Assembly (NCBI GenBank): GCA_048886185.1
Contig: JBHLKY010000001.1
Coordinates: forward strand, 1-32,000
DNA: 32,000 nt
Direction of reading: 5' to 3'
Source of the DNA: Candidatus Hermodarchaeota archaeon
GTDB lineage: Archaea > Asgardarchaeota > Heimdallarchaeia > Hodarchaeales > Hodarchaeaceae
Below are positions 294-32,000 of this stretch, piece after piece. The position numbers and the translations under genes are program-made. Under the pieces are notes generated by a model. That model was not told the origin of the DNA, ran no database searches, and saw nothing but the letters and a program-made list of their open reading frames with translations. Every line of letters starts with the position of its first letter. Positions within the stretch are counted from its first letter, which is position 1.

Positions 294-1247
294 TTAGAAA
301 GAAGTTAATAGAGTGGTCAAAATTATGCCCACAAATAGCCATAAGAATGCAAACGCCATGTAGATCGAAGCTAGTTTAAAGATTTTGAAAGTAAGTTCAT
401 TTGAAGGCTGTATGAGGTTAACCAAAGATCTGTAGACAATGAGAGTACTGAATCCTAGCAGTGGAAACATAGCGACAAAATGAATTTGGAGAAAAATTCC
501 TGTTAGTACAATTAGGAGAGCTGATAACAAAGCTGAAATAGTGATGACTTGAATAGTTTGAGATTTACTGCTAACAGCTGGCCACATGGGAACTTTTGCC
601 TTTTTATAACCATCCAAGTTTTTAGGTATCAAAGCAAGGGTAAGAATGTGTAAAGGAATCCAACACAAGACAAATAAACCCATTAGTAACGCAACAAGAT
701 CGATTGATCCAATGACTGCTGTCCTACCTGCAATGGCGGGAAGCCCCCCTGCAATACCACCAAAAATAATAGATACTCGTGTTCGTCTTTTTAACAGCAA
801 TGAATAAATTACGACATCAAAAAAGAATCCCAAAAAAACGATGATCATCGTAATAATATTGATGAATATCCCGATTGTTAAGATTCCAGCAGTAGTGAAG
901 AGAATACCATGTTTTAACACAGTCGCGGGAGGTACCCGACCACTTGGCAATGGACGATTCTTTGTTCTTTCCATGAGTGCGTCTATATCCCGATCCACAT
1001 ACATGTTGAGAAGTGTGGAACCAGAAACTGCAAAGAAAAGTCCTACAACTAGCCATATAAAGTGTAGTAGAACGAATCCTACATTCCAAGCACTAATAAG
1101 ATAAGAAAATATCGCTGTATAGAGAAGAAGAAAAGTTTGTTTGCTCTTAATCAACTCACCATAGGTGGAAAAGGAGAAAGGGGGGTAAGATGAGGGTGTT
1201 ATATGCTTATATTCTTGAGGAGATTTAGGAATTCCCATTTCATTCAC
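294..1247 (-). CDS. ctaB: Protoheme IX farnesyltransferase (heme O synthase, UbiA family), paralog 1
   Basis: NMYVDRDIDALMERTKNRPLPSGR motif, LKRRT, GGIAGGLP, WIPLH...YKKAKVPM; polytopic membrane protein. Confidence 0.92.
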   Translation of the reverse strand: MNEMGIPKSPQEYKHITPSSYPPFSFSTYGELIKSKQTFLLLYTAIFSYLISAWNVGFVLLHFIWLVVGLFFAVSGSTLLNMYVDRDIDALMERTKNRPLPSGRVPPATVLKHGILFTTAGILTIGIFINIITMIIVFLGFFFDVVIYSLLLKRRTRVSIIFGGIAGGLPAIAGRTAVIGSIDLVALLMGLFVLCWIPLHILTLALIPKNLDGYKKAKVPMWPAVSSKSQTIQVITISALLSALLIVLTGIFLQIHFVAMFPLLGFSTLIVYRSLVNLIQPSNELTFKIFKLASIYMAFAFLWLFVGIILTTLLTSF

Positions 1248-1365
1248 TACAATTAGTCATTTCATCATTTTAACAATTGATGAAGCATCCATTTGTTTCA
1301 ATTGAATTCAGGAACCTCGCTTTTAACAAACTTTTTCTAATTATTTTCCTATTTGGTGGGAAAAA

Positions 1366-1380
1366 AGTAACCTGATTACT
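1366..1380. promoter_or_regulatory. Palindromic operator AGTAA-CCTGA-TTACT
   Basis: Perfect 5-N5-5 inverted repeat just downstream (minus-strand sense) of a TTATAAAT box at 1392-1399; near-identical copies at 2265 and 18729. Confidence 0.65.
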
Positions 1381-1433
1381 CCCTGAATATCATTTATAAT
1401 TGATAAGATTCGTTGAGGTATAGGTTTTAGTAG

Positions 1434-1473
1434 AAAAAAAGAGAAAGTTAAGAAAGGGACTTGTATCCCTTTC
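1434..1473 (-). terminator. Hairpin plus T-tract terminator of the 7-TM gene
   Basis: GAAAGGGA-CTTGTA-TCCCTTTC stem at 1452-1473, followed on the minus strand by T-rich runs. Confidence 0.6.
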
Positions 1474-1497
1474 CTTACAGATGTCAATGTGAATTAC

Positions 1498-2169
1498 CTA
1501 TTTAAACAGAGGATTTTCAGGTCTCCACTTTTCTGGGAGTAGAATACCAAGAACGAACAATACTCCAACAATTACCAGTAGAAGTGGTAATACATCAAAA
1601 ATCTGATCTGCAGTTAATATTGGGGCGTCAAGCTTCAAAAAAGCTAGTAAAACTCCCCCAAATGATATCAAGAACCCACCAATTGAGTAGAAAATACTCG
1701 TTATTTCTGTTTTTTTAGTGAAAGCGGTATATAGAGGAATGCCAACTATCGAAAGTCCACTAGGAATATGAAGCCCCATTAATACAGGGGTAGAAAAAGC
1801 ATCAAAACCCGAAAGAAGCTCAAGTCTGACAACTGCTAAAGCGGCGACCATAACAACTGTATAGACGGTATAAAGTAATCCGTATGGTTTATCATCCCAA
1901 ACAACAAAGAAAAGCCCGATTGCTAAGCAGGCAGGTATGAAAGCTGCTACAACTGGAACTAATGGTTCTTCTAGTATAGTAAAACCATTTATTATGATTA
2001 AAACACCAGATACGAACAAAACAAGAAAACTAATGGCCCATGCTAAATGATAGACTTTTCTATTCTTCAGAAAGTCTAGTAATAGGAAAACGGCCATAAC
2101 TAGTGCTACCAAACCAGTAATCAAGAGTAATGTGATTGGAATTAGGTTTGCTGCAATATCATCTAACAT
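1498..2169 (-). CDS. Hypothetical membrane protein, about 7 TM
   Basis: About 7 hydrophobic segments; start moved from 2202 to the ATG at 2169, which follows a GGAGGT SD; two His (KVYH, GLHIP). Confidence 0.8.
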   Translation of the reverse strand: MLDDIAANLIPITLLLITGLVALVMAVFLLLDFLKNRKVYHLAWAISFLVLFVSGVLIIINGFTILEEPLVPVVAAFIPACLAIGLFFVVWDDKPYGLLYTVYTVVMVAALAVVRLELLSGFDAFSTPVLMGLHIPSGLSIVGIPLYTAFTKKTEITSIFYSIGGFLISFGGVLLAFLKLDAPILTADQIFDVLPLLLVIVGVLFVLGILLPEKWRPENPLFK

Positions 2170-2264
2170 TGTTAAACCTCCAAAAAACAAGTGAACATAC
2201 AATCTGCTTTCTATGTGAAAATTAATAATATTTGGTGAGTTTTTTTCGTAATAAGTACCCTCAA

Positions 2265-2279
2265 TGTAAGCTGATTACT
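2265..2279. promoter_or_regulatory. Operator copy TGTAA-GCTGA-TTACT
   Basis: 13/15 match to the 1366 site; lies in the divergent region between the 7-TM gene and the HxlR regulator. Confidence 0.5.
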
Positions 2280-2688: not shown

Positions 2689-3156
2689 ATGAGTGATGAG
2701 TTAGAAGAAGAATGTTCGGCTCTCTTAGCGATTAAAATTCTTGGTCGGAAGTGGATTCCATGGATACTGTGCGAGCTCTTGTCTCAAAGAGAAGCATACT
2801 TCTCGGATCTCCTGAAAAGAATTGAGGGAAATTATGGAGAAAAAATATCTGCAAGAGTTCTCTCAGAATCATTAAGTACCCTTGAAGAGAACGATTTACT
2901 TGAACGTATTGTGGAAAGCGAAACAATGCCTATTAGAGTGAAATATTCTTTAACAGAGAAAGGAGCTGACCTCGAGATAATCCTAGGAGCTTTAAAAGGA
3001 TGGGGAATCAAATGGGGCACTATTCGACAAAAAAAATGTAAGTCTTTCAGCTGTATTCACAATTGTGTTCCAATGATAAATATTAATAAAGCCAGAGAGC
3101 TATTGGAATTAGGTTTACCAATACCCTCCTCTGAAGAAGCTAAGGATACTGGTTAA
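2689..3156 (+). CDS. HxlR/DUF24 family winged-helix transcriptional regulator
   Basis: CSALLAIKILGRKW, FSDLLKRIEG, ISARVLSESLSTLEE, PIRVKYSLTEKG; extra C-terminal CxxxxCxxxC. Confidence 0.92.
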   Translation: MSDELEEECSALLAIKILGRKWIPWILCELLSQREAYFSDLLKRIEGNYGEKISARVLSESLSTLEENDLLERIVESETMPIRVKYSLTEKGADLEIILGALKGWGIKWGTIRQKKCKSFSCIHNCVPMININKARELLELGLPIPSSEEAKDTG

Positions 3157-3199
3157 AACTATAACTTATTTTCTAAAAAACAAAGTGAAGAGAATTACA

Positions 3200-3589
3200 A
3201 TGACTGAGAAATTTCCTGTTAAAACAGATTCGCTCTATTTTCAATATAGTGTGAAGGATATCAACCGCGCTAAGCAGTTTTATAATGATATTTTTGGATT
3301 TGAAATCACTTGGGATGGTGGATCGGAAGTAGGCTGGTGTGAACTGGCTCTTCCTGTGAAAGGAGCAAAACTTGGACTAAGTTTAAAACAGGAAGGTGAG
3401 ATCACTCCTGGTTCAGGAGTTCTTACCTTTGATGTCACTGATCTTGTTGCAGCTAAAATTTATCTCGAAAATAAAGAAGTAAAAACAACTGACATTACTG
3501 ATATTCCTGATATGGTTTCTTTTTTTGACATGTATGACTCTGAAGGGAATAGAATTCAGATTGTAGCTGAACCTCGAGTTAAGTCCTAA
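3200..3589 (+). CDS. VOC/glyoxalase family protein
   Basis: YSVKDINRAKQFYNDIFGF, LTFDVTD, FFDMYDSEGNRIQI; ATG at 3200 (track start 3185 is GTG). Confidence 0.9.
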   Translation: MTEKFPVKTDSLYFQYSVKDINRAKQFYNDIFGFEITWDGGSEVGWCELALPVKGAKLGLSLKQEGEITPGSGVLTFDVTDLVAAKIYLENKEVKTTDITDIPDMVSFFDMYDSEGNRIQIVAEPRVKS

Positions 3590-3607: not shown

Positions 3608-5005
3608 TCAATCCTGCCAATTGAGGAGGCGTTGCTCTCCTTCTAGTTCACGTATTTCAGTAATGTCTTGGGTTACTTCTAATGTTCCTTGGTAATTACC
3701 ATCCTGATCTCTAACTGCAAAATAGCGAATGAGGATAGTTTTTTCTTGTAATTTTATCCAAAATTCTGCAGCATCTTTCTTTCCTTTCTTGAATGCTTCA
3801 AGGATTCGATTAACAATATGAACACTTTTTCTCGGATGACAGTTCTGAACCTTCCTCCCGATTACACCAGGACTTCGAGGAAATATACGATCTGGAGTAT
3901 CCGAATAAAAACGAACAGTATCTGTCTCATCGATAAAGGATATTTCAATTGGTAGATGAGTTAATATTAAGGTGAGCTGTGATTGATTTAAATTCCCTGT
4001 TTTTAAGTTTAATACTTCTTTCTCTTCACTACTTTTCTTTTTATGAATCATTTCGGGGGTGATTGGTTTCCACTCTGTTCCTGGTGTTATCCACGCGTAT
4101 CCTATCTCTTCCTCTCCATTTCTAACTTCTGCCCATTCTTTGGTACCTAATAAATCAAGTGCAGTTGGAAACAGAATTGTTTCTTCTTTGAAAATTAAAT
4201 CTTCAATTTGTTTTGTCACTTCTTTAATATTTAGCTCTTTTTCTTTGAATAATCCTCTTATTTCATCATGTTTTGCCCACATAACCTGGGAGGGTCCAGT
4301 GAATCCTGCTTCCTCTAGTCTTGGAAAGAGTTGATTCTCTAATCTGGTATAATGGATTTCGATTTGTCTAAGTTTATCCACTAACTCTGGATTAAATGAT
4401 TGACGGATCTCTGTGATCAATGATCTCGCCATTTTATTCTCTTCCATGTAAGTGTGAACAGGGTGCCCTGGAATAGCTTCAGGACGGTCATGTTGATCCA
4501 AGGAATGCTCAAAAATCCCGACATGGAGATCACATAACTTTGTGATTTGATCTGCTGTCAACGATCCTTCATCAATCAGGGTTTGTTCCATTGATGCAAT
4601 TTCAGTCGCATCAACATCGCCTAAAAGCTCACGAAAACGCTTTTGAAGATCCTTTAGATCTCCGCCTTCATGTAACTCTAATATTAAGGCTTTTAACATT
4701 TCTTGTCTTCGTGCGTGTTCACTCTGCCAACCACTTTTGCCTTCATCAGCTAGTTCAATTATTACTTTTTTTGAGACATTCTTTTCAATACTTGCAGCTA
4801 AGACTTGAAGAAGTTCTGGTAATGCTGTTCCACTCATTTGAGAGACATCAGTTAGCGTAGCCTTTCTCCCAATAGTCTTGCGGAGGAAAGGGTTATTTAA
4901 ACGCCGTAACTTAGGATCTAAACTTATTAAAGTGTTGATAATGAACGGGAATTCTTCAATCAAATCTTTAATTTTAGTTGATTCCGTTAGTTTTATTTGT
5001 GACAT
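3608..5005 (-). CDS. DUF438 protein (DUF1858 + DUF438 + hemerythrin-like + PAS_10)
   Basis: LCDLH, GHPVHTYMEEN, HYTRLENQLFP, MWAKHDEIR, IGRKVQNCHP; ATG at 5005 after GAGGATGA (track start 5023 is TTG). Confidence 0.9.
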   Translation of the reverse strand: MSQIKLTESTKIKDLIEEFPFIINTLISLDPKLRRLNNPFLRKTIGRKATLTDVSQMSGTALPELLQVLAASIEKNVSKKVIIELADEGKSGWQSEHARRQEMLKALILELHEGGDLKDLQKRFRELLGDVDATEIASMEQTLIDEGSLTADQITKLCDLHVGIFEHSLDQHDRPEAIPGHPVHTYMEENKMARSLITEIRQSFNPELVDKLRQIEIHYTRLENQLFPRLEEAGFTGPSQVMWAKHDEIRGLFKEKELNIKEVTKQIEDLIFKEETILFPTALDLLGTKEWAEVRNGEEEIGYAWITPGTEWKPITPEMIHKKKSSEEKEVLNLKTGNLNQSQLTLILTHLPIEISFIDETDTVRFYSDTPDRIFPRSPGVIGRKVQNCHPRKSVHIVNRILEAFKKGKKDAAEFWIKLQEKTILIRYFAVRDQDGNYQGTLEVTQDITEIRELEGEQRLLNWQD

Positions 5006-5170
5006 ATACTCATCCTCTTTCAAGATATCTCAAAAACCATCTTGTACCTATTTCGAAATTCCCTCATTTCTGATGTTACCTAGCTAGATTGTGTGTTTAA
5101 AATATTAGTTTCTTATGGATGTACAAATTCATTTAACATTGATTTTTAGTTTATATAACTAATTCATTTC

Positions 5171-5605
5171 CTAGGTTAGAATCTTCATCATACATGTTGC
5201 TGAAGCAGGACATGCAGAAGTAAATTCAATTGACTTTTTTATTCTATCATCGGCTTTATCTCTTGGAATTATCATATAATCGAGTTTAGAGAAGAAGTCT
5301 GCAGCAGTTTCAGTCAGTAAATAAATTGCTTTCAGTTTTTTCTCTTTTCCAAACTTCTGAATTGCATCAACGAGTATATTACCTATTCCACGGCCTTGAA
5401 AACTAGGATCAACAGCAACAGAACGAATGAGGCCTACATTCTCATAAAGTTCGATTCCAATGCATCCAACGAGCTGATCTTCTTCTTGAGCAATGAAAAA
5501 ATTGTCAAAATGGTCTGCAACTCCCTCTAAAGGAAGATTTACTTTCCTAAGTAACCTGAAAACGCTTTTTAATTCTTGATGATTAGCTGTACGGATCTTA
5601 ATCAT
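5171..5605 (-). CDS. arsN2: GNAT acetyltransferase, ArsN2-like
   Basis: LIRSVAVDPSFQGRGIG acetyl-CoA motif, YLLTETAADFF, C-terminal EFTSACPASA. Confidence 0.8.
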   Translation of the reverse strand: MIKIRTANHQELKSVFRLLRKVNLPLEGVADHFDNFFIAQEEDQLVGCIGIELYENVGLIRSVAVDPSFQGRGIGNILVDAIQKFGKEKKLKAIYLLTETAADFFSKLDYMIIPRDKADDRIKKSIEFTSACPASATCMMKILT

Positions 5606-5749: not shown

Positions 5750-6433
5750 ATGTCATGTCCTCAATGTCTTGGCATAGAAACCACTTTTAACAATGATAGT
5801 GCTGTGAAGGACCTTAAAAAATATCAAGAAAAAGGGCCTAGGAAAACTACACAATTTCTAATAGATTTCTTTCTTAAAAGAGGAGTTAAAGGAAAATCAT
5901 TGTTAGACATCGGTGGTGGAGTTGGTATTATTCAGCATGAGCTCTTAAAGTGTGGACTGGACAGAGCTATCAGCGTTGAAGCTTCTTCAGCCTATTCCGA
6001 AGTTTCAAAAGCTGAAGCAAGAGATCAGGGACATGCAGAGAAAGTCGAGTTTTATCATGGAAATTATGTAGATTTGGCTCCTACTATTTCTAGTGTAGAT
6101 ATTGTCACTTTGGATCGTGTTGTCTGTTGTTATCCTGATATGGAACAACTAGTTCATAGCAGTATTAACCATGCAAAGGAATACTATGCTGTGATTTATC
6201 CACATGATAAGTTATGGATGAGACTAGGTATTGCTATTGTCAATTTTATACAACGAATAAAACGAAGCAATTATCGTGGGTTCATTCATTCAAAAGATGC
6301 TTTTCATAAAATAATCAAAGAGCATAATTTCGAACAATGTCATTTTCAAGAGACATTATTATGGCGGATTGAGATTTTTAAGAAAAAAAATGGACAATTG
6401 CATACTCAAAACACGACCAATAATTCTTTATGA
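5750..6433 (+). CDS. Class I SAM-dependent methyltransferase (BchM-like sequence features; substrate unknown)
   Basis: LLDIGGGVG motif I, DIVTLDRVVCCYPD, N-terminal CPQC. Confidence 0.85.
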   Translation: MSCPQCLGIETTFNNDSAVKDLKKYQEKGPRKTTQFLIDFFLKRGVKGKSLLDIGGGVGIIQHELLKCGLDRAISVEASSAYSEVSKAEARDQGHAEKVEFYHGNYVDLAPTISSVDIVTLDRVVCCYPDMEQLVHSSINHAKEYYAVIYPHDKLWMRLGIAIVNFIQRIKRSNYRGFIHSKDAFHKIIKEHNFEQCHFQETLLWRIEIFKKKNGQLHTQNTTNNSL

Positions 6434-6457: not shown

Positions 6458-7423
6458 ATGGAATACGAAATTTTGGGAAGTATAATTTTTAGTTTTGTAA
6501 CCTCCTTACGGGAGGTTTTAGAAGCAGCTTTAATCATAGGTATTATTGCAAGTTATTTAACAATTATAAATCGTAGAGATTTGTACCGTGATATTGTATA
6601 TGGCGTGAGTGCGGCAATTATCTTCAGTTTTGGAATGGCATGGGTTTTTTTGACCTTTTTTACCGATTTAGCTGAATTCCAAAAATTATTTGAGGGTATT
6701 GCAATGTTTCTGGCTGCAGGCGTTCTCTCATGGATGATTGTATGGATGACACGCCAATCTAAGAATATACGTTCAGACATCGAAGAAAAAGTCAATAAAA
6801 TTATCTCAAATCAAGAGAAAGCAGGTATTACTCTATTAGTTTTCATTTCAGTGGCGAGAGAAGGAGCTGAATTGGTTCTTTTTCTCTATGCGAGTTATAT
6901 AGGTAGTGTTGAAGAAACAGGAATTTTAACAGCACTTTCTGCAATTAGTATTGGATTTCTGTCTGGTTTAGTTTTTGCTTCCATAATGGCGTTCGTTCTT
7001 TTTACTACGACACGAAAATTTGAAATCAAGAAATTTTTTCAGGTAACAAGTGTGATTCTCATTTTTTTCGCGGCTGGATTACTTGCTCATGGAGTTCATG
7101 AGATCTATGAATTTTTAGAAATTTCGGGGTCACCTTTCATCAATAATGTTATTTGGATGGAAGTGTGGAACATTAACAATACCCCATTAGGTGATTTGCT
7201 AACTTTCCTATTTGGGTGGAGTTATGATCCACTTAATCCCTTAAGATTTGAGAAAAGTGCCATAGGTGGCATAGCAGTGGGTTTATTTGGATGGAATGAT
7301 AATCCTGCTTTGCTTGAAGTCATTAGTTATGGATTCTATTTTCTTGTTATTTTTATTCTGATTATGCGAGCTACAAGCTTTCCCGAAAAGAATGAAAGAG
7401 ACATTACTCCTAACACTCCTTAA
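6458..7423 (+). CDS. FTR1/EfeU family high-affinity iron permease
   Basis: Two RExxE motifs (REVLE, REGAE); LLAHGVHE; multiple TM helices. Confidence 0.92.
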   Translation: MEYEILGSIIFSFVTSLREVLEAALIIGIIASYLTIINRRDLYRDIVYGVSAAIIFSFGMAWVFLTFFTDLAEFQKLFEGIAMFLAAGVLSWMIVWMTRQSKNIRSDIEEKVNKIISNQEKAGITLLVFISVAREGAELVLFLYASYIGSVEETGILTALSAISIGFLSGLVFASIMAFVLFTTTRKFEIKKFFQVTSVILIFFAAGLLAHGVHEIYEFLEISGSPFINNVIWMEVWNINNTPLGDLLTFLFGWSYDPLNPLRFEKSAIGGIAVGLFGWNDNPALLEVISYGFYFLVIFILIMRATSFPEKNERDITPNTP

Positions 7424-7432: not shown

Positions 7433-8119
7433 TTACTCCCCGATGAGTTCTTCGGTCACAAGAAGAGCGATAGCAAGAAGTATAATTGCATGGATGAAGA
7501 GAAGCAAAATGTTATTGACAACATTCAATGGATCTTCAAAAAGGACAAGGCTGGTTGATGCTTGGGTTGCAAGTATGATTGATGGGAGAATCAATGGAAA
7601 AAATAGGATTGGGATTGCTAAAGTCTTAGATTTCGCATAAATAGTCAAGAAAGAAACAATACATCCTGCAACACAAAGATCTAAGGTTCCTATTGTTAAC
7701 ACCACGCAAAGAAGAAGAAAATCAGCTTGGAAGTCTAATCTTAAAAATACAATAGCTAGAATAACAGTTACTATTTCGATGAAAGCTAGAATAACACCTA
7801 AATAGATAAGTTTAGCGAGGAAAATGGCTTGTGGCTTTATTGAGAGGGAAAGTAGCGAATAGATTGAGTTTTTTCTTATCTCGCGAGAAAATACCGAAGT
7901 TAAACCTAACATTACCGAGAACGTAATGATAAACCATAAACTTGCTACAGAAACAGCCTGTTTAGCTTTTAATGATATATCTATTAGATTAAATAGACTA
8001 GAAAAGATCAGTACAGAGGCAAAGGAGAAAAGACCCATTGAAAAGAGTGTTTCCCTTTTCCTAAACTCTAGCAAAATGTCTTTTTTCGCCAGATGATATG
8101 TAGCACTGATTATTGTCAT
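7433..8119 (-). CDS. ccmB: Heme exporter/cytochrome c maturation protein B
   Basis: KDILLEFR, FSRE, IFLAK, LFFPLILP; 6 TM; follows ccmA. Confidence 0.88.
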   Translation of the reverse strand: MTIISATYHLAKKDILLEFRKRETLFSMGLFSFASVLIFSSLFNLIDISLKAKQAVSVASLWFIITFSVMLGLTSVFSREIRKNSIYSLLSLSIKPQAIFLAKLIYLGVILAFIEIVTVILAIVFLRLDFQADFLLLCVVLTIGTLDLCVAGCIVSFLTIYAKSKTLAIPILFFPLILPSIILATQASTSLVLFEDPLNVVNNILLLFIHAIILLAIALLVTEELIGE

Positions 8120-17299: not shown

Positions 17300-17304
17300 T
17301 AATG

Positions 17305-21284: not shown

Positions 21285-21331
21285 GTAACTCTACTTATTC
21301 AACATCTTTTCAATCGTGGAATGACTCCTAC

Positions 21332-22276: not shown

Positions 22277-22359
22277 GGGCATTTAAGTCCAGTTTGGAGG
22301 TTTTTTCAGCTAATTATTTGAAGTAATGTTTATCAAAGCGATTTTAGTTGGACTAGTAA

Positions 22360-23586: not shown

Positions 23587-23888
23587 CCAAAAAAAAGGTC
23601 TCTCAAAACAAGATTCTGAAATAAATATTTAGCAAAAATCATTTTTAATTGCTGAATGAAAGCTAAATATATATATTAGAAAGAATAAGATTAATTAAAT
23701 GACGCTAGATAAAGAGTATTCAACTTCTCTACGAAAAAATTAGAAAATGGAATAAAAATTGACTTTTAATTTTTATAGTCAAAACTTATAAACACATTTT
23801 ATCTAGTATTTTATGAAATAAATATAAATACTATAAGAAATATGTTAATCTTAAGGATATATCAGTAAACAAAAAGAAAGTGTAAATT

Positions 23889-24569: not shown

Positions 24570-24886
24570 TTTTTTGTTATTTCTTATGGCGTGAAATTTC
24601 CGAGCTTCAGTTATTTAAAGTTTTTTTGTCTTATTCTCTTTTTTAAATGAATTTTATCTGTTTTTAGTGTAAATTCTTCTTCTTTACTTACTCAATTGAG
24701 CTAAAGTGAGAAAAATTTTTCATCTTTCTTTAAGAAAAAAATGTAAAAAATGTAAAAAGATATATTTATTAATTAAATTGAATTAATTATGATACAGATA
24801 AAATCTTTCACAAAATCAACCCTACAATTTGAAATTCGATTTTATCTGAAGATGGCGCTTTGTGTGCTCTGTATGTGGATGTAAAG

Positions 24887-25849
24887 ATGAAAACCATTAG
24901 AAGGAAAATTAAAATATTTCTCTTTGTAACATTTTTTAGTTTAAGTAGTTTAACAGTTCTGAATGCACTAGGAAAAGTCTCTGCTGATCAGGTAGGCTTT
25001 ATAGCACCGAAAATTACCTTTCAAATCGATCTGAATGATGGACAAATTGCATCTTTCTGGTCCAAAATCAATTCGTATCAAGACATCACCGAATTTGGAG
25101 GAAGTGGTTTTGTGAAATTCGCGAATAATGGAACTCACCTGTTTGCTCTGCTAGTAAGCTCAAGTGATAATGTATGGATTTCAGTTGAATTTGAGCCAGA
25201 TTCCTCTTTGTGTATGAAGAATTTAAATGATGGTTGGTCTTTTTACATTAATAAGGATGAACAGACAGTTTTAGCTAAAGATGTTAAGTTCAGGGGTACT
25301 GTCATTCCAACAGATGATGCGAAAAATGATCTATCTATTGAAAGTATATTTTCAGAGGGTTTGGTCTATATTGAGACAATTCGATCTTTTGATACTTCAG
25401 ACTTAAATGGATATGATATTACTTTTCATAACGCTAGCACTAATTTTCTTAAGTTTGCGTCTGATAGGAATCATTTTGGTAATCATGAAATTTACTATCT
25501 CTATGTTTATATTCCTGCTGATCAACCTAGTAATGAAACAAGTGGTAGTGAAACAATAGAACCCACTGATCCCTATAATACCGAAACAACTGAAACAAGT
25601 GAGGAAATTATCGTCATTCCCACCGATATTCCTGATATTCCAATTCCAGAGGGAGTTGACCTAAATCAGGTGAAGTTTCTATTACTAGGTATCACCCCAT
25701 TTGGCATCTTTGGCTTTGTAAGTATTCATTTGATCCGTCGAGTTTTCTACAGTCCTATAAGTCACGATCACGGTAGGATAGTTTCAAGTTCGTGGAAAGC
25801 TCCTACATTTATCGAAAGATTCAAGGACACCTTTCTTTCTAAAAAATAG
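24887..25849 (+). CDS. Extracellular DOMON-like heme b-binding protein with C-terminal TM anchor
   Basis: Signal peptide; DLNDG..W, CMKNLNDGW (candidate Met ligand), ETIRSFDTSD..YDI, NHFGNH (candidate His ligand); Pro/Thr/Glu linker, TM. Confidence 0.7.
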   Translation: MKTIRRKIKIFLFVTFFSLSSLTVLNALGKVSADQVGFIAPKITFQIDLNDGQIASFWSKINSYQDITEFGGSGFVKFANNGTHLFALLVSSSDNVWISVEFEPDSSLCMKNLNDGWSFYINKDEQTVLAKDVKFRGTVIPTDDAKNDLSIESIFSEGLVYIETIRSFDTSDLNGYDITFHNASTNFLKFASDRNHFGNHEIYYLYVYIPADQPSNETSGSETIEPTDPYNTETTETSEEIIVIPTDIPDIPIPEGVDLNQVKFLLLGITPFGIFGFVSIHLIRRVFYSPISHDHGRIVSSSWKAPTFIERFKDTFLSKK

Positions 25850-25883: not shown

Positions 25884-26609
25884 TTGGTAGCAAAAATGAC
25901 AACAGCATACATAAAGGATAATAAAAAAATAGAATCAGCGGATATCAGTGAGGACATTACCGTTGTAAGATATAATAATCTTCAGAGGATTCATCATTGG
26001 ATTCATGTTTTTATCATGATCTTCTTCTTCTTTACTGGATTCGAGTTATTTATTAAAGTGTATTTCGTTGGAGATTATTTCCTAACACGATCTCTTCATT
26101 TCATTTTAGGGATTTTCACTGGGTTTTGGGATATTATCTTTTTCGGTGCAATCCTAATTGGATATGGAAAAATCAATGAAATCATTCCTTATCCTAGAGA
26201 TTTCCTTGATATTGTCATAATTTTCCTTTGTGCAATAAAAATTCTTCCCGATGAGAAGTATCCTGAGTATGATTTTTACGTTAGAGAGAAACAGAAATAT
26301 GTTATGAAATATCACCCCCTTCAAAAGCTTCTAACAGTAAGTAATATTCTTATGATTTTTCTGATGGGAGTTACAGGTATTGTTCTTGCAGAGGAACTCG
26401 TTCCTGGATCTACGGGAATATTAAGTATTATAGGATCATTGGCATTTCCTTTTCAAATGTTTAAAATCGATCTTCGGTTCATCCACTTTGGTATCTATCT
26501 CTACTTTCTCTTTACTACATTAATTCACTTTTATTTTGCACTAATCCCCCAAAATCGACACCGTTTAAGGGGTATGGTGACTGGTAAAGAGAAAATTCCA
26601 ATTAATTAA
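25884..26609 (+). CDS. Di-heme cytochrome b, FdnI/HyaC type
   Basis: RYNNLQRIHHWIH, RSLHF, YHPLQK, and two His 14 residues apart in the last TM (FIHF...LIHF); ATG alternative at 25896. Confidence 0.88.
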   Translation: MVAKMTTAYIKDNKKIESADISEDITVVRYNNLQRIHHWIHVFIMIFFFFTGFELFIKVYFVGDYFLTRSLHFILGIFTGFWDIIFFGAILIGYGKINEIIPYPRDFLDIVIIFLCAIKILPDEKYPEYDFYVREKQKYVMKYHPLQKLLTVSNILMIFLMGVTGIVLAEELVPGSTGILSIIGSLAFPFQMFKIDLRFIHFGIYLYFLFTTLIHFYFALIPQNRHRLRGMVTGKEKIPIN

Positions 26610-26899: not shown

Positions 26900-27577
26900 G
26901 TGCATTCAATCCACAAAAATGGGTTTTTTTCAAAACAGAACTCTAACTTCATGTTTTCTTTCTTCTTTGCTCTTACTTTTCTGTGGATGGTACTGTCTTT
27001 CTCAATATTCAGTTTAATCTATAACTTGCTAATTTTCCCTTTTACCATAATTCATGAATTAAGTCATTGTTTCGCGCTTGGTTGTTTTTTTCCAGGTAAA
27101 GAAGCTCAAATTGAATTCCATTTGTTTGATAATGGAATTACTTATGCTAATGTAAAATTCGAGTCCCTTCCTCTCTGTTTAGGATCTGTGATGTCTCTTA
27201 TTATTGGTCCGTTATCTGTTTTGACACTATGCATACTAGGGATCATTATGCTAAAACAGTATCCTTCATCAAATCTTAGCAAGACTACAAGTAATTTCTT
27301 AAAGTTTGTATTATTGTGTGATTTTCCAAATCTATTTCCAATACATCCTCCTATGATTAACGCAGTTACTGATGGATATGCAGCAAGTGTGTATCTATTC
27401 CAAATGGGTGTTGTCCCTTTCATTTCAACAGAGTTATCTATAATACTCTATATGATTGCTGCTATAATTTCTTTCACTTCGTTCTTCTACCTTGGAACCT
27501 CAGTCTATTTTCTTTTACAGCACTTCAAAGTATTGGTCCTGAAAGATGAACGAAACTTTCATCCCCAATTAGCTTAA
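26900..27577 (+). CDS. M50-family (site-2-like) intramembrane zinc metalloprotease
   Basis: IIHELSH (HExxH) in a TM; NLFPIHPPMINAVTDG (NxxP...DG). Confidence 0.75.
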   Translation: MHSIHKNGFFSKQNSNFMFSFFFALTFLWMVLSFSIFSLIYNLLIFPFTIIHELSHCFALGCFFPGKEAQIEFHLFDNGITYANVKFESLPLCLGSVMSLIIGPLSVLTLCILGIIMLKQYPSSNLSKTTSNFLKFVLLCDFPNLFPIHPPMINAVTDGYAASVYLFQMGVVPFISTELSIILYMIAAIISFTSFFYLGTSVYFLLQHFKVLVLKDERNFHPQLA

Positions 27578-27588: not shown

Positions 27589-28287
27589 TCATACTTTAGC
27601 TTTCTTTAGTTTATTTATTCTATAAACACAAAGCATGTCTCCCTCGGATAAACACTGGACTTTATCAGCTTTTTTCCCCACTAGTTCAGTAACTAGAGTT
27701 TCATCAACAATACATGCTAAAGGATGATTACGGACAATATCATAAATTAAACAATTGCGATTTGTTATTGTAAATGAATCTTTAGTTTCTTCAATTTCAG
27801 GAAAACTGCCATAATCTTGGAAAACTTCTGCAACTGCATTAATTCTGTCTTTCAAATTATCAGAATTCGTACCACTTTCTTTTAAGGTTGAGTTAAGTTT
27901 TCTTTTCATCTCTTCAGCTTTTTCTTTACCCATTTCCGTTAGAAGATGTCGAGCTTCTTCCTCTCCAAAATTCTTTAAGATACGGTTTAGCAGTCGAATA
28001 GAAAAATCTGCATAAGATTTAGGAAATTTGGTTAGAGCAGCTTGGGCTAAGAAATAAGTCATCGCTGGACGACCTGTTTTCCCCTTCTTTTTCTTACGAA
28101 TTACGAGTTTATCTTTCTCTAGTTCAATCAGATATTGGCGTATCGCATTAGGAGATAAATCAAAAGTCTCCGCCATCTCTTTTATTGAACATCCCTGAGA
28201 TTCATCTTGAATGTTACTATTTACAAGTAAATAGCTTAGGATTTCTAATCGTGTTGATGAAAGATGTTCACTAGCTACCTGAGGCAT
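27589..28287 (-). CDS. SufR-like HTH regulator, paralog 2
   Basis: Collinear with 23889..24569 (GRPAMTY, FPKSYADFS, NC-X12-C-x2-DE, C...GDMLC); start moved to ATG 28287 (MPQV). Confidence 0.85.
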   Translation of the reverse strand: MPQVASEHLSSTRLEILSYLLVNSNIQDESQGCSIKEMAETFDLSPNAIRQYLIELEKDKLVIRKKKKGKTGRPAMTYFLAQAALTKFPKSYADFSIRLLNRILKNFGEEEARHLLTEMGKEKAEEMKRKLNSTLKESGTNSDNLKDRINAVAEVFQDYGSFPEIEETKDSFTITNRNCLIYDIVRNHPLACIVDETLVTELVGKKADKVQCLSEGDMLCVYRINKLKKAKV

Positions 28288-28571
28288 ATTTGCATCGCCT
28301 AATAGAATATTATATCGAACAAATATAATCAAAGAAGTATGTATTTTTTAACTTTTTTAAATGTTTTTACATTAAATTATAATAAACTTTTTAAGAAGAG
28401 ATTTCATTCTAAAAAATGACTAGAATAATGTAGAATGTAATTTATTATTATCAATGTGGATTTTTAAGCTTTAAAACTAATACGATTGTTTGAAAGGTCA
28501 AGCATTAAATACATACTTTTTCTGATACCATTGATCCTCACCTATTTTATGCAAAGAAGTATAAACTGAAT

Positions 28572-29786
28572 GTGATTCCATTGCACGTTGTTATCATTGG
28601 ATCTGGTCATGCAGGTATAACTGCCGCTATCACTCTTCGTCAGAATGCTGAGGATATTGAAATATCTATGATAACGGAAGATAGCTATCCTCATTATCCC
28701 CGTCCATCTGTCTATAAAATCATTTCAGGCAAAAAACCTGAAGAGATACTCCGTTTTCCCAAAGATTGGTATGATAAAAATGAAATATCTCTTTCTCTCA
28801 ATAGTCGTGTAACTAAAATTAATGGAGCAAAAAAGAAGATAAAAATTAAGAATGGAGAAATTATTTCTTTCGATAAACTCCTGATTACCACTGGCTCCGA
28901 ACCATTCATCCCTCCTATACCAGGACTCCTAGATAGTCCTTTTTGCTGTTTACGAGATATAGTTGATGCCCTTACAATCCGTGAACGTGCATTAAGTAGT
29001 TCAACTGGGCAAGCTACAATTTTAGGGGGTGGTTTACTTTCTGTTGAACTAGCAAAAACGCTTTCTGACATTGGAATCATGCCCACAATTATCGATAGAT
29101 CACCTTACTTACTTAGGAAACAACTTGACGAAGAAGGGGGTCGTTTCTTTAATGAAGTGTTAGATAAAATGTTCGACATCAAATTCTTCCATCAAACTTC
29201 TTGTCAAAAGATCAAATACGCTAATAAAAATTTTTTAATTGAAATTAAGGATGCCTCAGGATTACGCACTCATACATGTGACTTTTTACTCAACGCTACA
29301 GGGATTCAAAATGATAACGATCTTCCCCATAGAGCAGGTATCAAAATAGGAAATTATGCTATTATTGTAGATCCTTTTATGCGAACCAATGTTCCAGATA
29401 TTTTTGCAGCTGGAGATGCTGTAGACATTGAATCTTTTCCAGGATCTAAATTTGGTATCATTCCTACTGCTATTGATCAAGCAAAGATTGCTGCTATAAA
29501 TATACTTGGAAGTGAGGTTCCGTACCCAGGGACAATGCCCTGGACTACTCTGAAAGTGGCTGGGATTAGTTTAACATCTTTAGGAGATGTTTCAACTGGC
29601 CCTAGAATTAATGAAGAGGGTGTGATAATTGATCGTGTTCAGGGTATATATCAAAAACTCTTTTTTAAAGATAACACTTTACAAGGAGCCATTCTTATTG
29701 GTACAAAGAGAAACTTATCCGAGCTTAGGAATCTAACTATCCGAAATGCTTCTTTAAGTGAAGTTAAGAATGAGCTTGATATCTGA
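28572..29786 (+). CDS. NAD(P)/FAD-dependent oxidoreductase, NADH:rubredoxin oxidoreductase/NirB-N type
   Basis: IIGSGHAG, LLITTGS, GGGLLSVE, TNVPDIFAAGD, TTLKVAGI. Confidence 0.88.
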   Translation: MIPLHVVIIGSGHAGITAAITLRQNAEDIEISMITEDSYPHYPRPSVYKIISGKKPEEILRFPKDWYDKNEISLSLNSRVTKINGAKKKIKIKNGEIISFDKLLITTGSEPFIPPIPGLLDSPFCCLRDIVDALTIRERALSSSTGQATILGGGLLSVELAKTLSDIGIMPTIIDRSPYLLRKQLDEEGGRFFNEVLDKMFDIKFFHQTSCQKIKYANKNFLIEIKDASGLRTHTCDFLLNATGIQNDNDLPHRAGIKIGNYAIIVDPFMRTNVPDIFAAGDAVDIESFPGSKFGIIPTAIDQAKIAAINILGSEVPYPGTMPWTTLKVAGISLTSLGDVSTGPRINEEGVIIDRVQGIYQKLFFKDNTLQGAILIGTKRNLSELRNLTIRNASLSEVKNELDI

Positions 29787-29791
29787 ATTTC

Positions 29792-30262
29792 TTACTTCCT
29801 AAATAGCATTTTAATTTTTTCCCACAGTCTTCTTCTTGGTTTCATTTTAGGAGAAATATCACCCATTGCTTGGCTCCGTACAACATTAAGGCTTAATAAA
29901 TCCTGCTCAAAATCCTCGAAAGTATCTTCTTTAATAATAGTTCCTATTCTTGAGCCATATTTTTCTAAAAAAATTGCCATCGCCTGATTTAAACGATCCT
30001 CTACCATTTTTGTTCCAAGAGGATTGGCAAAGACCATGATTATTTCTTTCTCTCTGTCAATCTTGAAGTCTAACTTAATGTCGTTGAATATTACAGATTT
30101 TAATTCTTCTTGTCCAAAAGATTCCTCGGCAAAAGAATACATCGCTGCTAAAAATCCAGTTTGAAGTGCATGATCAGGATGTAATTTGCAATAATCTCCT
30201 CCATAACACTTGGCAAAAAGAGGAATTCCAGAAGTCTGAAGAATAAATACATCATCGGCCAT
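29792..30262 (-). CDS. Longin-like domain protein (Asgard type)
   Basis: VFILQTSGIPLF...LQTGFLAAMYSFAEESFG..LKSVIF..LDF pattern. Confidence 0.65.
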   Translation of the reverse strand: MADDVFILQTSGIPLFAKCYGGDYCKLHPDHALQTGFLAAMYSFAEESFGQEELKSVIFNDIKLDFKIDREKEIIMVFANPLGTKMVEDRLNQAMAIFLEKYGSRIGTIIKEDTFEDFEQDLLSLNVVRSQAMGDISPKMKPRRRLWEKIKMLFRK

Positions 30263-30484
30263 TTCATCATTTCCTCTAAGAGAATTTTATGCTGTCATAT
30301 CATTTTTTAACGATATTTTTGATGATAACAATCCTTTTCTTTTTAACTTTTTCAATTTTTGCAATCAGAGGAATTAGATAAACCAATTGAAGATATCTTA
30401 ATGAAGTTATTGAGATTAAGAACCCACGCCTGATTATGAAGGAATTCTGTTTCTAGATTTCCGTCGCTTACTTCATTTCTCTTC

Positions 30485-30958
30485 TTATTCCCATTTAGAG
30501 AGTATGAATGTAGAATCCCATCCTGTTGAACGTTGTTCAATCTTTCCCTTTTGTGATATTAAGCCAAGAACAATTAGATAATTGTTGATTGTTTCTGTAG
30601 ATAGATCAGGAACGACTTTTTTTATCTCTGAGGTAGTTTTATGTCCCTTTAAAAGAGCCTGCAGAATCTCTACAGCATTAGATATTAGAGTAAATCTGTA
30701 TGGCTTTTCTTCTGAAACATCCCCTCTAGGATTAAGATTCCATTCCTCTCCATCTTTAACAACACGACCAAAAGAATTTAAATAGGTTAGGAACCCTAAT
30801 GAATAATAGGTATCGCTTATGCAGAGATCTGTACCTGGAGAAATCTCGTATGGAGATGATTCCTCTTTTAGATATTCCATCTTCTCAATTACCTGTAAAA
30901 ATGTCTTAAATGGAAATTTATCAAAAGGTGGATTACTGAAGTGTGCATTTAAAGCCAT
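30485..30958 (-). CDS. Hypothetical protein, probable tandem winged-helix
   Basis: Two similar halves, each ending L.(F/V)L..(L/I)...G.(V/I)......W. Confidence 0.55.
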   Translation of the reverse strand: MALNAHFSNPPFDKFPFKTFLQVIEKMEYLKEESSPYEISPGTDLCISDTYYSLGFLTYLNSFGRVVKDGEEWNLNPRGDVSEEKPYRFTLISNAVEILQALLKGHKTTSEIKKVVPDLSTETINNYLIVLGLISQKGKIEQRSTGWDSTFILSKWE

Positions 30959-31256
30959 TTTAATTCCTCATTGTAAATAAACATTTATTAGGTTGTTTCT
31001 TCTTCTTGTTGTTTCACGAAATTTGATTCTTAATGTTTATTACCTTTTAATTTTCGTAATTTATCTAAATATAGAAAAAATTCTGGTAATTAGGTGAAAA
31101 ATGCACAATTAATACGAATTGGCCTCTTCTTCCTCTAAAACTAAATTTGAAGTAATTTATTATATTATTAAATAACAATAGTTAACTTTTTATTCACGAG
31201 GTATTTAACATCAAATAGGCAATAAAATCTCATAAAATAATTCGTTGTGATTAAAA

Positions 31257-31757
31257 ATGACTGAAAAGATAATTCAAGGTACATCAAAGTTACATATTGG
31301 AGATAAAGCGCCAGATTTCACACTTCCCGCGCAAGATGGGAAAAAAATCAGGTTATCAGACTATCGTGGTAAGAAAAATGTCATGCTTGCCTTTTACCCT
31401 CAAGACTTTACTCCAGTATGTTCACATCAGCTCCCATCCTATAGTAATCAAATAAACAAATTTGATGAGCTGAATACACAAGTTTTAGCAATTGGAGTTG
31501 CCTCCATTCCTGTTCATATTGCTTGGATAGATAGTCTTGGAGGTCTGAACTATCCTCTTCTTGCTGATTGGGTTCCTTACGCTGAAGTTAGTAAAAAATA
31601 TGACGCTTTTATTCCACGTATTGGCTTTGGAAAGCGTGCGATCTTTATTATTGATAAAAAAGGAATTATTCGCTATATTGACATTCCCCACGAACTTAAT
31701 GAAGGACCTCCAGATGAGGAAAAGATTTTCAAGACTCTCAAAGAGCTTCAAGACTGA
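31257..31757 (+). CDS. Peroxiredoxin (AhpC/TSA, 1-Cys AhpE-like)
   Basis: [34 protein letters not shown]; only one Cys. Confidence 0.92.
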
Positions 31758-31776
31758 CCTGATCTAATTCTTAGCA

Positions 31777-32000
31777 TTATCCTGAATTTAGTATGAAGCT
31801 TGCAACTCTTTCTCCAAACTCTTCTCCTTTTTTCAAATCCTTTTCAGAGGGTCCCCCAATAAAATCAAACACATCTAAGATTTCCCATTTTAATTTTCTT
31901 GTTATCTCCTCAAAGTCTCTCTTTGCGCCATCATTCCATCCATAGGAACCGAAGAAAGCTGATTTCTTTTTAATAATCCTTTTACGTAAAGCCATATCAA
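31777..32000 (-). CDS. fprA: C-terminal flavodoxin domain of an FprA-type flavodiiron protein (5' end outside window)
   Basis: Frame is open to the window edge; FFGSYGWNDGA motif; ends GEEFGERVA. Confidence 0.7.
   Translation of the reverse strand, partial: DMALRKRIIKKKSAFFGSYGWNDGAKRDFEEITRKLKWEILDVFDFIGGPSEKDLKKGEEFGERVASFILNSG

Follow-up and report, generated by a model that had tools for sequence, protein, structure and literature searches.

Linked cytochrome maturation, surface cytochrome and cytochrome b modules beside a haem O synthase-associated oxidase-fold module in a Hodarchaeales archaeon

The stretch of DNA analysed here (the window) is the first 32 kb, positions 1 to 32,000, of the 316-kb contig C1 (JBHLKY010000001.1) of a Candidatus Hermodarchaeota archaeon (assembly GCA_048886185.1). 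It holds three groups of genes that recur as units in related genomes. Module A consists of cytochrome c maturation (ccm) genes, a barrel protein and a surface-tethered multihaem cytochrome c. Module B comprises a SufR-like regulator, a DOMON-like exported protein, a di-haem cytochrome b and an M50-like protein. Module C contains a protein with twelve transmembrane (TM) helices and an oxidase fold, two haem O synthase-like proteins (ctaB) and several conserved partners. Around these lie genes connected with iron and oxidative stress (Table 1). The inventory was drawn up from a listing of open reading frames (ORFs) together with Pfam and NCBIfam profile scans of the window proteins. It confirmed within the window every haem, cytochrome and iron gene, and every gene for handling O2, reactive oxygen species or nitric oxide (NO), that a first-pass annotation of this DNA had named. 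As that annotation had said, no dehydrogenase catalytic subunit is encoded in the window. Rfam and tRNA scans of the window found no RNA genes.

The host genome (G000; other G numbers denote relatives) is 4.84 Mb long with a GC content of 35%, and is 96% complete and 5% contaminated. The best database matches of the oxidase-fold protein, the multihaem cytochrome and CcmF are named Hodarchaeales or Heimdallarchaeota; going by these names, the Asgard placement given in the first-pass annotation is borne out, as Hodarchaeales type. In the closed genome of the relative G010 (4.94 Mb), 28 of the 30 window proteins are found in identical order, and this collinearity rules out a chimeric contig. Gene surveys took in 41 genomes, 21 of the genus and 20 others of the class. 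Synteny was followed by tblastn of all window proteins against 40-kb stretches around the oxidase-fold homologue in ten relatives, and in a second set, covering nine genomes, against the surroundings of the DOMON and CcmF homologues. Searches of the host genome did not find 16S rRNA, CtaA (PF02628) or MqnA, which at 96% completeness does not amount to absence.

Table 1 Features of the window in order of position, with the basis of each assignment
Feature	Position	Strand	Basis and remarks
ctaB copy 1, haem O synthase-like UbiA prenyltransferase	294-1247	-	PF01040 147.6 bits; TIGR01473 208.6 bits (cut-off 210.3)
7-TM protein	1498-2202	-	No Pfam or NCBIfam match; conserved partner of the oxidase-fold protein
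HxlR-family regulator, 5 Cys	2689-3156	+	PF01638 60 bits; candidate redox sensor of module C
Glyoxalase/dioxygenase-superfamily protein	3185-3589	+	PF00903; near HxlR in G010, G002, G018 and G020
DUF1858-DUF438-hemerythrin-PAS_10 protein	3608-5023	-	Pfam; candidate O2/NO-binding sensor
GNAT acetyltransferase	5171-5605	-	Pfam; passenger
Class I methyltransferase	5750-6433	+	Pfam; 25 bp upstream of FTR1; elsewhere only in G010
FTR1/EfeU-type iron permease	6458-7423	+	PF03239 147 bits; NF041756 169 bits, below its cut-off
ccmB	7433-8119	-	PF03379 50.9 bits; haem-export ABC permease
ccmA	8136-8885	-	PF00005 102.8 bits; ABC ATPase
CcmD-like 49-aa ORF	8893-9042	-	One TM helix, charged tail, GAGGTGA Shine-Dalgarno; assigned by architecture alone
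ccmC	9071-9754	-	PF01578 67.8 bits; WGYWWQWE
ccmE, CxxxY variant	9785-10183	-	PF03100 25.8 bits (cut-off 24.6); C-terminal CPSKY
ccmF/nrfE-family haem lyase	10176-12518	-	PF01578 92.5 bits; TIGR03145/TIGR00353 matches; WGGFWAWD
Membrane-tethered (alpha/alpha)6-barrel protein	12538-14769	-	GlcNAc_2-epim 47.8 bits; GH76 28.9 bits
Surface-tethered multihaem cytochrome c	15032-16678	-	MccA/OcwA/NrfA superfamily; 6 CXXCH + CX4CH + CCM site
12-bp tandem repeat, (DHTV)n stalk of the cytochrome	15159-15227	-	Tandem Repeats Finder: period 12, 5.2 copies
Ig-like (Big_7) surface protein, PGF-CTERM end	17305-18645	-	PF17957; GAPGF + TM + KRQHRNR
AGTAA-N5-TTACT palindrome, exact	18729-18743		Divergent promoter of Big_7 and the 6-TM/oxidase-fold/ctaB operon
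6-TM protein, first gene of the oxidase-fold operon	18867-19634	+	No family match
12-TM oxidase-fold protein, seven invariant His	19686-21284	+	No Pfam match; AlphaFold 2 pLDDT 89, pTM 0.90
ctaB copy 2	21332-22276	+	TIGR01473 214.8 bits (cut-off 210.3); directly downstream of the oxidase-fold gene
Major facilitator superfamily (MFS) transporter	22360-23586	+	PF07690 164 bits
SufR-like HTH+MetOD1 regulator a, head of module B	23889-24569	+	PF18546 42.6 bits; TIGR02702 73.7 bits
DOMON-like exported protein, C-terminal TM anchor	24860-25849	+	No Pfam match; Atlas DOMON/EB_dh neighbours
Di-haem cytochrome b (FdnI/HyaC/CybB family)	25884-26609	+	PF01292 42.9 bits (cut-off 30.1)
Small 5-TM HExxH protein, M50-like	26900-27577	+	HELSH motif; no Pfam match
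SufR-like HTH+MetOD1 regulator b	27589-28332	-	Paralogue of a, 45% identity; present in G010 and G015
NROR-like NAD(P)H:rubredoxin-type oxidoreductase	28572-29786	+	Pyr_redox_2 168 bits; Rubredoxin_C 57.8 bits
Small soluble protein	29792-30262	-	Between NROR and peroxiredoxin
Small soluble protein	30485-30958	-	Between NROR and peroxiredoxin
Peroxiredoxin (AhpC/TSA)	31257-31757	+	PF00578 127 bits
Flavodiiron protein FprA, C-terminal 73 codons	31777-32000	-	Gene extends to C1:33000

Module A reads, in its full order, cytochrome, barrel protein, CcmF, CcmE, CcmC, (CcmD), CcmA and CcmB, and the first three genes are never separated. Their order is kept in all 12 other examined genomes of the genus whose loci or contigs reach it (G010, G014, G011, G008, where it occurs twice, G001, G002, G004, G006, G015, G017, G019 and G020). 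CcmF was detected in 16 of the 21 genomes of the genus and in none of the 20 other genomes of the class. The cytochrome-barrel-CcmF triple is also found as a repeated unit: a second copy lies on an 8.7-kb contig of the host genome (C54:415-6487), with a cytochrome that has six CXXCH motifs and precomputed PF02335 (NrfA) matches, and the two copies in G008 are 16 kb apart. Only two ORFs with at least three CXXCH motifs exist in the whole host genome, and each adjoins its own CcmF paralogue, as nrfA adjoins nrfE; NrfE models are the best NCBIfam matches of CcmF.

Both CcmC and CcmF contain a Trp-rich motif of the WWD type and match PF01578 above its cut-off, and in CcmE a Cys replaces the His of the haem-binding motif (Cys-x3-Tyr). 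No CcmG, CcmH or CcmI was found by the Pfam scans of the window, the rest of the genome not having been searched for them. The set resembles the System I variant of Methanosarcina acetivorans (PMC9084895), which has CcmABC, CcmE with Cys-x3-Tyr and CcmF in a locus without CcmG, CcmH or CcmI. It differs from that system in its single 780-aa CcmF, its CcmD-like ORF, the barrel gene in the operon and its Asgard host. One in-frame TGA interrupts each of the CcmF matches in G002 and G021 and could reflect selenocysteine, a frameshift or a pseudogene.

The barrel gene always lies between the cytochrome gene and ccmF. Its product, assigned to the outside of the cell, has N- and C-terminal TM helices and a fold resembling GH76 proteins and 2-epimerases, and its match in the Protein Data Bank (PDB) is an alpha-1,6-mannanase (2.6e-5). 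It could be a chaperone for the apocytochrome, or a handler of glycans on the cytochrome, which is rich in sequons. In every genome examined the barrel protein was a constant member of the cytochrome-CcmF unit.

The multihaem cytochrome is predicted to be tethered at both ends, with an N-terminal TM helix and a C-terminal TM helix followed by a basic tail. It is rich in N-glycosylation sequons and further contains a helical bundle and a Thr/Val stalk. Conserved throughout the family are a C-x2/4-CH site, a degenerate C-(C)-M/H site and six CXXCH motifs. A profile of the family (hmmsearch of alignment A2 against the PDB) matched 4rkm (MccA) at 4.1e-21, 6i5b (OcwA) at 4.4e-21, 8rv0 (ONR) at 1.2e-12 and 2vr0 at 2.2e-12, with NrfA structures in the range 2-5e-12, and the likeness spans the haem core and the C-terminal helices. 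A single-sequence phmmer search of the PDB with the cytochrome gave no match. PF02335 is present in some homologues, for which NCBI records use the name NrfA. Most end in PGF-CTERM, where the window copy reads PAIGL. Stalks of the homologues are instead poly-Thr or Cys-Pro-rich and differ greatly in length. The Big_7 gene is kept beside the cytochrome gene or the 6-TM gene in relatives.

Among the closest known systems is OcwA, the nine-haem cell-surface terminal reductase of Thermincola potens (PDB 6I5B; PMC6703420). The profile match to OcwA covers two stretches, including the C-terminal helical bundle with a G-x-H-N motif, and the two proteins share an exposed position at the surface of a cell that has no outer membrane. 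However, the window cytochrome has six CXXCH motifs, one CX4CH and the CCM site, compared with nine sites in OcwA, a CAGCH haem site of which aligns with the CCM. It is also archaeal, with an N-terminal TM helix, a stalk and a PGF-CTERM-type anchor, and has its own CcmF and barrel neighbours. Similarly, the cytochrome is related by profile to MccA, NrfA and ONR, but unlike these it has neither CXXCK nor CX15CH and is membrane-tethered at both ends. The NrfH or NrfBCD partners of NrfA systems are missing here, and a cytochrome b and a DOMON-like protein stand in that place.

Module B, with the regulator, the DOMON-like protein, cytochrome b and the HExxH protein, recurs in 11 genomes. The HExxH gene is its fourth gene in G000, G010, G015, G002, G004, G006, G020, G013 and G017; in G008 and G019 the locus stops short of that gene. 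Atlas neighbours of the HExxH protein are Peptidase_M50 and DUF3267 structures (TM-score about 0.6), and it resembles minimal M50 proteases. Both SufR-like proteins align over their full length with TIGR02702 (73.7 and 77.8 bits, below the cut-off of 178.8), and no suf genes are found near them. Their likeness to SufR is at the level of the family only, and they are putative Fe-S sensors. Of the two Fe-S sensors claimed in the first-pass annotation, the HTH+MetOD1 architecture and the full-length alignment stand, but the scores fall below the cut-off for SufR itself.

The cytochrome b of module B has invariant His residues at H33/H34/H37, H68, H197 and H211, with enough His in its TM helices for two haems. 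Compared with the prokaryotic FdnI/HyaC/CybB cytochromes b, it stands here with no hydrogenase or formate dehydrogenase partner. The DOMON-like gene is found in 14 of the 21 genomes of the genus and in none of the 20 others. Its Atlas neighbours have TM-scores of 0.43-0.50 by query and 0.58-0.70 by hit (Atlas model pLDDT 0.57), and across ten sequences M110, H84, H196, H200 and K77 (A3 numbering) are invariant. In the pair of DOMON and cytochrome b that had been annotated earlier, the cytochrome b is backed by PF01292 and the DOMON assignment by Atlas features and structure, with no Pfam match. A predicted complex of the two proteins reached an ipSAE of 0.53 (best of three controls, 0.00), with contact agreement of at least 52% and partner pLDDT of at least 62 across runs. 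This is weak support. Of 80 solved complexes, 58 came up to this mark, as did 2 of 110 mismatched pairs, but scores of 0.60 or less came from only 7 of the 80 solved complexes and from both mismatches that passed. A di-haem membrane cytochrome b paired with an outward DOMON-type domain with candidate Met and His ligands recalls the eukaryotic b561-DOMON (CYBDOM) proteins. In contrast to these, the two parts are separate genes here, the cytochrome b belongs to PF01292 rather than to the eukaryotic b561 family, and the DOMON has diverged too far for Pfam.

Modules A and B are repeatedly found together, in different ways. Module B is divergent from ccmCAB in G002, G004, G020 and G013, stands behind ccmECAB in G015, is divergent from the cytochrome-barrel-CcmF operon in G006, G017 and G019, and in G000, G010 and G008 is no more than 8 kb away from module A. 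Nine of the 11 genomes have the DOMON/cytochrome b unit immediately next to ccm or cytochrome genes, and in the remaining two (G000 and G010) the distance is at most about 8 kb. The linkage persists through at least six distinct gene orders. Such recurrence of the DOMON/cytochrome b pair beside ccm and cytochrome genes despite rearrangement is consistent with a route that leads from a membrane cytochrome b to haems on the surface.

Module C centres on the oxidase-fold protein. Its model (predicted local distance difference test, pLDDT, and predicted TM-score, pTM, in Table 1) was compared with known structures by VIA-align, and the best matches were subunit I of cbb3 oxidase (CcoN; Z 20.4, root mean square deviation 3.9 A over 404 residues), NorB of the nitric oxide reductase (NOR) cNOR (Z 19.9) and bo3 oxidase (Z 18.1). 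The ten best PDB matches by this method are all subunit I of haem-copper oxidases (HCO) or NOR (Z 20.4-14.7), with the next, unrelated match at 11.9, and the top 50 Foldseek matches are likewise all HCO/NOR. The first-pass assignment of an HCO fold holds up well in this comparison, in which oxidase and NOR subunit I alone occupy the top of the list.

The fold is accompanied by unusual residues. Seven His are invariant in 34 homologues (H78, H135, H235, H237, H298, H411 and H413 in P0006 numbering). Of these, H78 in TM2 and H411-W-H413 in TM10 are in register with the haem ligands of COX1 in a global hhalign alignment with 13 COX1 sequences (probability 11%). Subunit I supplies CuB/FeB ligands by one His in TM6 and an HH pair in TM7, but this protein has no HH pair at any position; TM6 has H235-x-H237, and single His residues lie at 135 and 298. 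Neither the protein nor six full-length distant members of its family match any Pfam model, COX1 included, at E 0.01; the true COX1 of the host genome scores 449.7 bits. A phmmer search of the PDB with the oxidase-fold protein returned only a fragment of an Mrp antiporter (9e-4). Compared with HCO subunit I (CcoN, 3MK7; NorB, 4XYD), the 12-TM fold is shared (rmsd about 4 A over about 400 residues), but the HH pair and HPEVY are missing, four other His are invariant (TM4, the TM6 HxH and TM8), and the family is linked with haem O synthase and is found in genomes lacking Cox. Only 279 representatives of this small family exist among 1.84 billion proteins, and no Pfam model covers it.

The partners of the oxidase-fold protein are conserved beyond the genus. 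Its gene and ctaB are adjacent in 10 of 10 loci, including that of G028, which belongs to another family, and likewise in a Thorarchaeota-labelled contig that carries the full set of module C at 35-66% identity. There the 6-TM protein is 35% and the 7-TM protein 56% identical to the window copies, and both are also kept in the genus. Homologues of the 7-TM protein further adjoin the oxidase-fold gene in an Aminicenantes operon (two copies, 31% identity), where the 12-TM gene, an FGE-sulfatase gene, UbiA, the two 7-TM paralogues and a DUF1858 protein lie in a row. The hxlR gene adjoins module C in the Thorarchaeota-labelled contig and, within the genus, in the nine loci that extend far enough to include it; its product has a weak likeness to the redox regulator RrpB. 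Module C lies no more than 10 kb from CcmF in nine genomes and stands alone in G015, G002, G018, G020 and G028. From its presence in the Thorarchaeota-labelled contig, in Aminicenantes and in genomes without ccm, we conclude that module C is older than, and independent of, modules A and B.

Several variants of these arrangements were seen. In bacteria, a domain of FGE-sulfatase type either comes after the oxidase-fold protein or is fused with it, and two other oxidase-fold proteins are fused to PD40 beta-propellers (seen in Aminicenantes contig L051 and proteins P0123, P0189 and P0247). In G010 and G015 the MFS gene comes after ctaB, and in an Anaerolineae contig it comes after the oxidase-fold gene. 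Two oxidase-fold homologues (G001 C4:140441-142003 and G016 C91:11064-12614) have one in-frame TGA, for which selenocysteine, a frameshift or a pseudogene are all possible.

We compared the distribution of ctaB with that of COX1 and the oxidase-fold gene. A ctaB gene was detected in 25 of the 41 genomes. The oxidase-fold gene is present in all 11 genomes that have ctaB without COX1, and ctaB is missing from each of the 13 genomes devoid of both COX1 and the oxidase-fold gene. The scores against TIGR01473 also separate: 257-272 bits for ctaB adjacent to cox and 200-225 bits for ctaB beside the oxidase-fold gene. Judged by sequence, the two score classes suggest two paralogous lineages with different clients. 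Given this distribution and the score classes, the oxidase-fold protein is the most likely client of the haem O synthase in these genomes. The two ctaB copies of the window are 73.6% identical to each other. In the comparison of the relatives G026, G030 and G034 with the genus, G030 has both score classes. A role for the oxidase-fold protein as a substitute for haem A synthase was considered and rejected, as the protein is kept in closed genomes without COX1 (G010, G015 and G028).

A candidate operator marks the promoters of module C. The palindrome AGTAA-N5-TTACT of Table 1 has a second exact copy, AGTAACCTGATTACT, at position 1366, 119 bp upstream of ctaB copy 1, and copies with one mismatch lie in promoter regions at 2265, 2509 and 16858. 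The five promoter copies are thus found before ctaB copy 1, twice between the 7-TM gene and hxlR, before the cytochrome gene and between the Big_7 and 6-TM genes. With at most one mismatch the window contains 10 sites, compared with 2.2 expected, and none of 100 shuffles reached 10. Equivalent promoters hold the palindrome in nine of nine loci of the genus with different gene orders. In these, 12 of 36 sites fall in equivalent promoters, which make up about 2% of the DNA (0.76 expected; binomial 6e-12, for genomes that are kin). The palindrome precedes the cytochrome gene only in G000 and G008. These findings support an HxlR regulon for module C acting through this candidate operator and extending to the cytochrome gene in those two genomes.

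With moderate confidence, we propose that the window is the first 32 kb of a mosaic redox island in which modules A and B make up an outward electron chain and module C a separate haem O-dependent enzyme. Quinol would be oxidised by the cytochrome b, and the electrons would cross the membrane through its two haems to a DOMON haem on the outer face, for which the Met and His residues are candidate ligands. They would then pass to the tethered multihaem cytochrome, presumably a client of the variant System I ccm set of module A, which would reduce an oxidant outside the membrane, with nitrite, NO, hydroxylamine, sulfite, peroxide and Fe(III) as candidates. Expression may be set by the SufR-like protein according to Fe-S, O2 or iron status. 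Haem loading, direction of flow, substrate and regulatory signals are what we infer here, next to gene identities, folds, synteny and operator position that are observed directly. Module C is most likely an undescribed haem O-dependent membrane enzyme that reduces O2 or NO, under a thiol-based regulator that binds AGTAA-N5-TTACT. We entertain only tentatively the fuller version of this proposal, in which the path from quinol through di-haem cytochrome b and DOMON haem to a lipid-anchored multihaem cytochrome lets syntrophic anaerobes respire extracellular oxidants or pass electrons to partner cells, alongside a new haem O branch of the oxidase superfamily.

A number of observations weigh against this proposal. 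The synteny of modules A and B comes entirely from one genus, whose genomes are not independent, and in G015 the cytochrome-barrel-CcmF triple is more than 2 Mb from the DOMON unit. The DOMON-like protein has no Pfam or NCBIfam match, its assignment being by structural likeness only, and BLASTP found no likeness between it and the Pfam-positive DOMON of the downstream cox operon. A search upstream of the SufR-like genes, and between them and the DOMON gene, turned up AT-rich low-complexity repeats and no conserved palindrome. A CXXCK catalytic haem is not among the sites conserved in cytochrome alignment A2, and one expected haem site reads CCM, so that the cytochrome could be either an enzyme or a wire. 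Its AlphaFold 2 model is poor (pLDDT 59, pTM 0.40), and its fold class therefore rests on the profile matches. Archaeosortase ArtA (TIGR04125) matches in the host genome reach 29.9 and 24 bits (cut-off 75). Of a quinone pathway, MqnA was looked for and not found in this genome, which is 96% complete. Lastly, among RNA datasets no match was found to the region 15032-24569 or to the oxidase-fold gene alone; DNA datasets with a match to the region are sediment and estuary metagenomes.

The first-pass annotation had read all the genes of these 32 kb as one co-regulated system, switched by O2 or iron, that leads from the quinone pool in the membrane to haems on the outer surface, a reading which we now consider improbable. 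All the named genes are indeed present, and modules A and B are linked. All modules together with FTR1 and the DUF438 protein lie within about 40 kb in G000, in G010/G014 and, rearranged, in G008; the oxidase-fold gene is close to CcmF in nine genomes; and the palindrome also precedes the cytochrome gene in G000 and G008. Yet the genes form a dozen or more transcription units, distributed over both strands and with three different regulators, which argues against one co-regulated unit. The palindrome marks only the oxidase-fold module and, in two genomes, the cytochrome promoter. In the closed genome of G015 the modules are dispersed over four distant places, in G002, G020 and G004 they are on separate contigs, and module C occurs in lineages without any ccm genes. 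Synteny is conserved for the core modules but fails for the periphery, with FTR1, DUF438, NROR and peroxiredoxin shared only with the closest relatives (G010, G008 or G017), the linkage of FprA likewise confined to close relatives, and NROR missing in G010. Rather than a single unit, what emerges from about 20 genomes of the genus is three separately conserved modules. The route from the membrane to surface haems survives for modules A and B and not for all genes, and switching by O2 or iron survives as redox- or iron-type regulators on individual modules (HxlR and SufR-like).

An unlikely alternative is that the DOMON/cytochrome b pair works alone, for instance as a superoxide:quinone oxidoreductase resembling CybB or as a ferric reductase for iron uptake, with the cytochrome fed otherwise; the ccm neighbourhood would then be explained by a common need for haem and iron and by shared SufR-like control. 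PF01292 includes stand-alone cytochromes b561, eukaryotic b561/DOMON proteins are ferric reductases, FTR1 is nearby in three genomes, and it is the haem exporter genes ccmCAB, rather than a cytochrome gene, from which the unit diverges in four genomes. Nevertheless, in G006, G017 and G019 it is divergent from the cytochrome-barrel-CcmF operon itself, no other candidate donor is conserved beside the cytochrome, and G013 keeps the unit beside ccmCAB (CcmF was not found there with the query used). We regard it as very unlikely that the chain runs inward, with the surface cytochrome taking electrons from an outside donor such as Fe(II), reduced humics or a syntrophic partner to the quinone pool and the oxidases of the island. 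Cox/Cyo, cytochrome bd and the oxidase-fold protein do lie in the same island, and the electron donors to Cox are unknown according to a preprint on cultured Hodarchaeales (10.1101/2025.02.26.640444). However, modules A and B are retained in G010, G008, G011 and G015, in none of which Cox was found; the Hodarchaeales oxidase is reported to use quinol, not cytochrome c (10.1101/2025.11.07.685452); and the closest characterised relatives of the cytochrome (OcwA, MccA and NrfA) are reductases. That the island is a horizontally acquired collection of unrelated, uncoupled redox genes held together by descent alone we find hardly credible. The restriction of CcmF and the DOMON-like gene to the genus would fit this, as would a GC content of 0.38-0.41 over 14-22 kb (the cytochrome, Big_7 and oxidase-fold genes) compared with about 0.33 in the flanks and 0.351 in the genome. 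But all ORFs are intact, the same partners are reunited after at least six rearrangements, and the cytochrome-barrel-CcmF triple was duplicated as a unit. The outward chain of modules A and B, with module C apart, is therefore the reading we prefer.

Each part of this system is of a known kind, and the linkage of the modules, the operator and the distribution relative to Cox are the additions of the present analysis. Heimdallarchaeia have been said to lack cytochrome c, as judged by a search for monohaem domains, and unknown proteins were suggested to fill gaps in their electron transport (10.1101/2025.02.26.640444). Appler et al. described coxABC of Hodarchaeales beside DOMON proteins and, variably, beside oxidative-stress and haem genes (10.1101/2024.07.04.601786). 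The same arrangement is found here at C1:32-50 kb, but multihaem cytochromes and ccm genes are not mentioned in that work, and the modules described here persist where COX1 was not found. In a partial library we found no paper joining Hodarchaeales with multihaem cytochromes, ccm or nrfA. Nor did the searched literature contain a cytochrome b/DOMON pair linked to a ccm-associated surface cytochrome in Hodarchaeales, a barrel gene fixed in a ccm operon, the HxlR operator or the link between haem O synthase and the oxidase-fold protein.

These findings bear on two questions raised in current work on Hodarchaeales, namely the possible use of oxygen by the archaeal ancestor of eukaryotes and the workings of electron transport in its membrane. 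The whole genus carries a cytochrome c maturation system with dedicated multihaem surface clients and a conserved cytochrome b/DOMON feeder, a set that points to extracellular or surface redox chemistry in Hodarchaeales syntrophs. If the proposed conduit is real, it would allow respiration of extracellular oxidants or direct electron transfer to partner cells. The presence of haem O synthase in lineages without Cox also has a possible explanation, in that it travels there with the oxidase-fold protein.

The remaining genes of the window are less conserved. FTR1 adjoins ccmB only in G000, G010 and G008, and FTR1, the GNAT gene and the DUF438 gene are syntenic only in G010 and G008. NROR is gone from the copy of the locus in G010 and kept in G017; both NROR and peroxiredoxin are syntenic in G017 alone, the peroxiredoxin gene being displaced in G010. 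The full FprA gene (C1:31777-33000) matches ODP PF19583 (88 bits), flavodoxin PF00258 (33 bits) and NF008887 (293 bits). It begins the downstream part of the island (C1:31777-52241), which is at least 52 kb long in total. Beyond the window, FprA is accompanied by genes for glutaredoxin, FTR-beta, a second NROR, superoxide reductase, ferritin and two rubrerythrins, then by an acyl-CoA dehydrogenase, an MBL-rhodanese protein, a CCG protein, a UbiE-like methyltransferase, a weak UbiA match and a Na/H exchanger. A Cox/Cyo operon at 44.9-49.7 kb is headed by the Pfam-positive DOMON and encodes COX4, COX1 (449.7 bits), COX2 and a COX3 fusion; cytochrome bd subunit I follows at 50.9-52.2 kb of C1. 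FTR1, the DUF438-hemerythrin protein, NROR, peroxiredoxin and FprA are oxidative-stress and iron genes gathered here recently, and the superoxide reductase, rubrerythrin, Cox/Cyo and cytochrome bd genes outside the window are likewise a recent gathering.

Two further observations concern small proteins. One of the two small soluble proteins between NROR and peroxiredoxin has a weak longin match (Fuz_longin_1, E 0.0047), and both are kept in G010 and G017. At the start of the contig, a 37-aa ORF (89-202, forward strand), below the usual length for gene calling, has a CxxC...CPxC spacing typical of a zinc ribbon.

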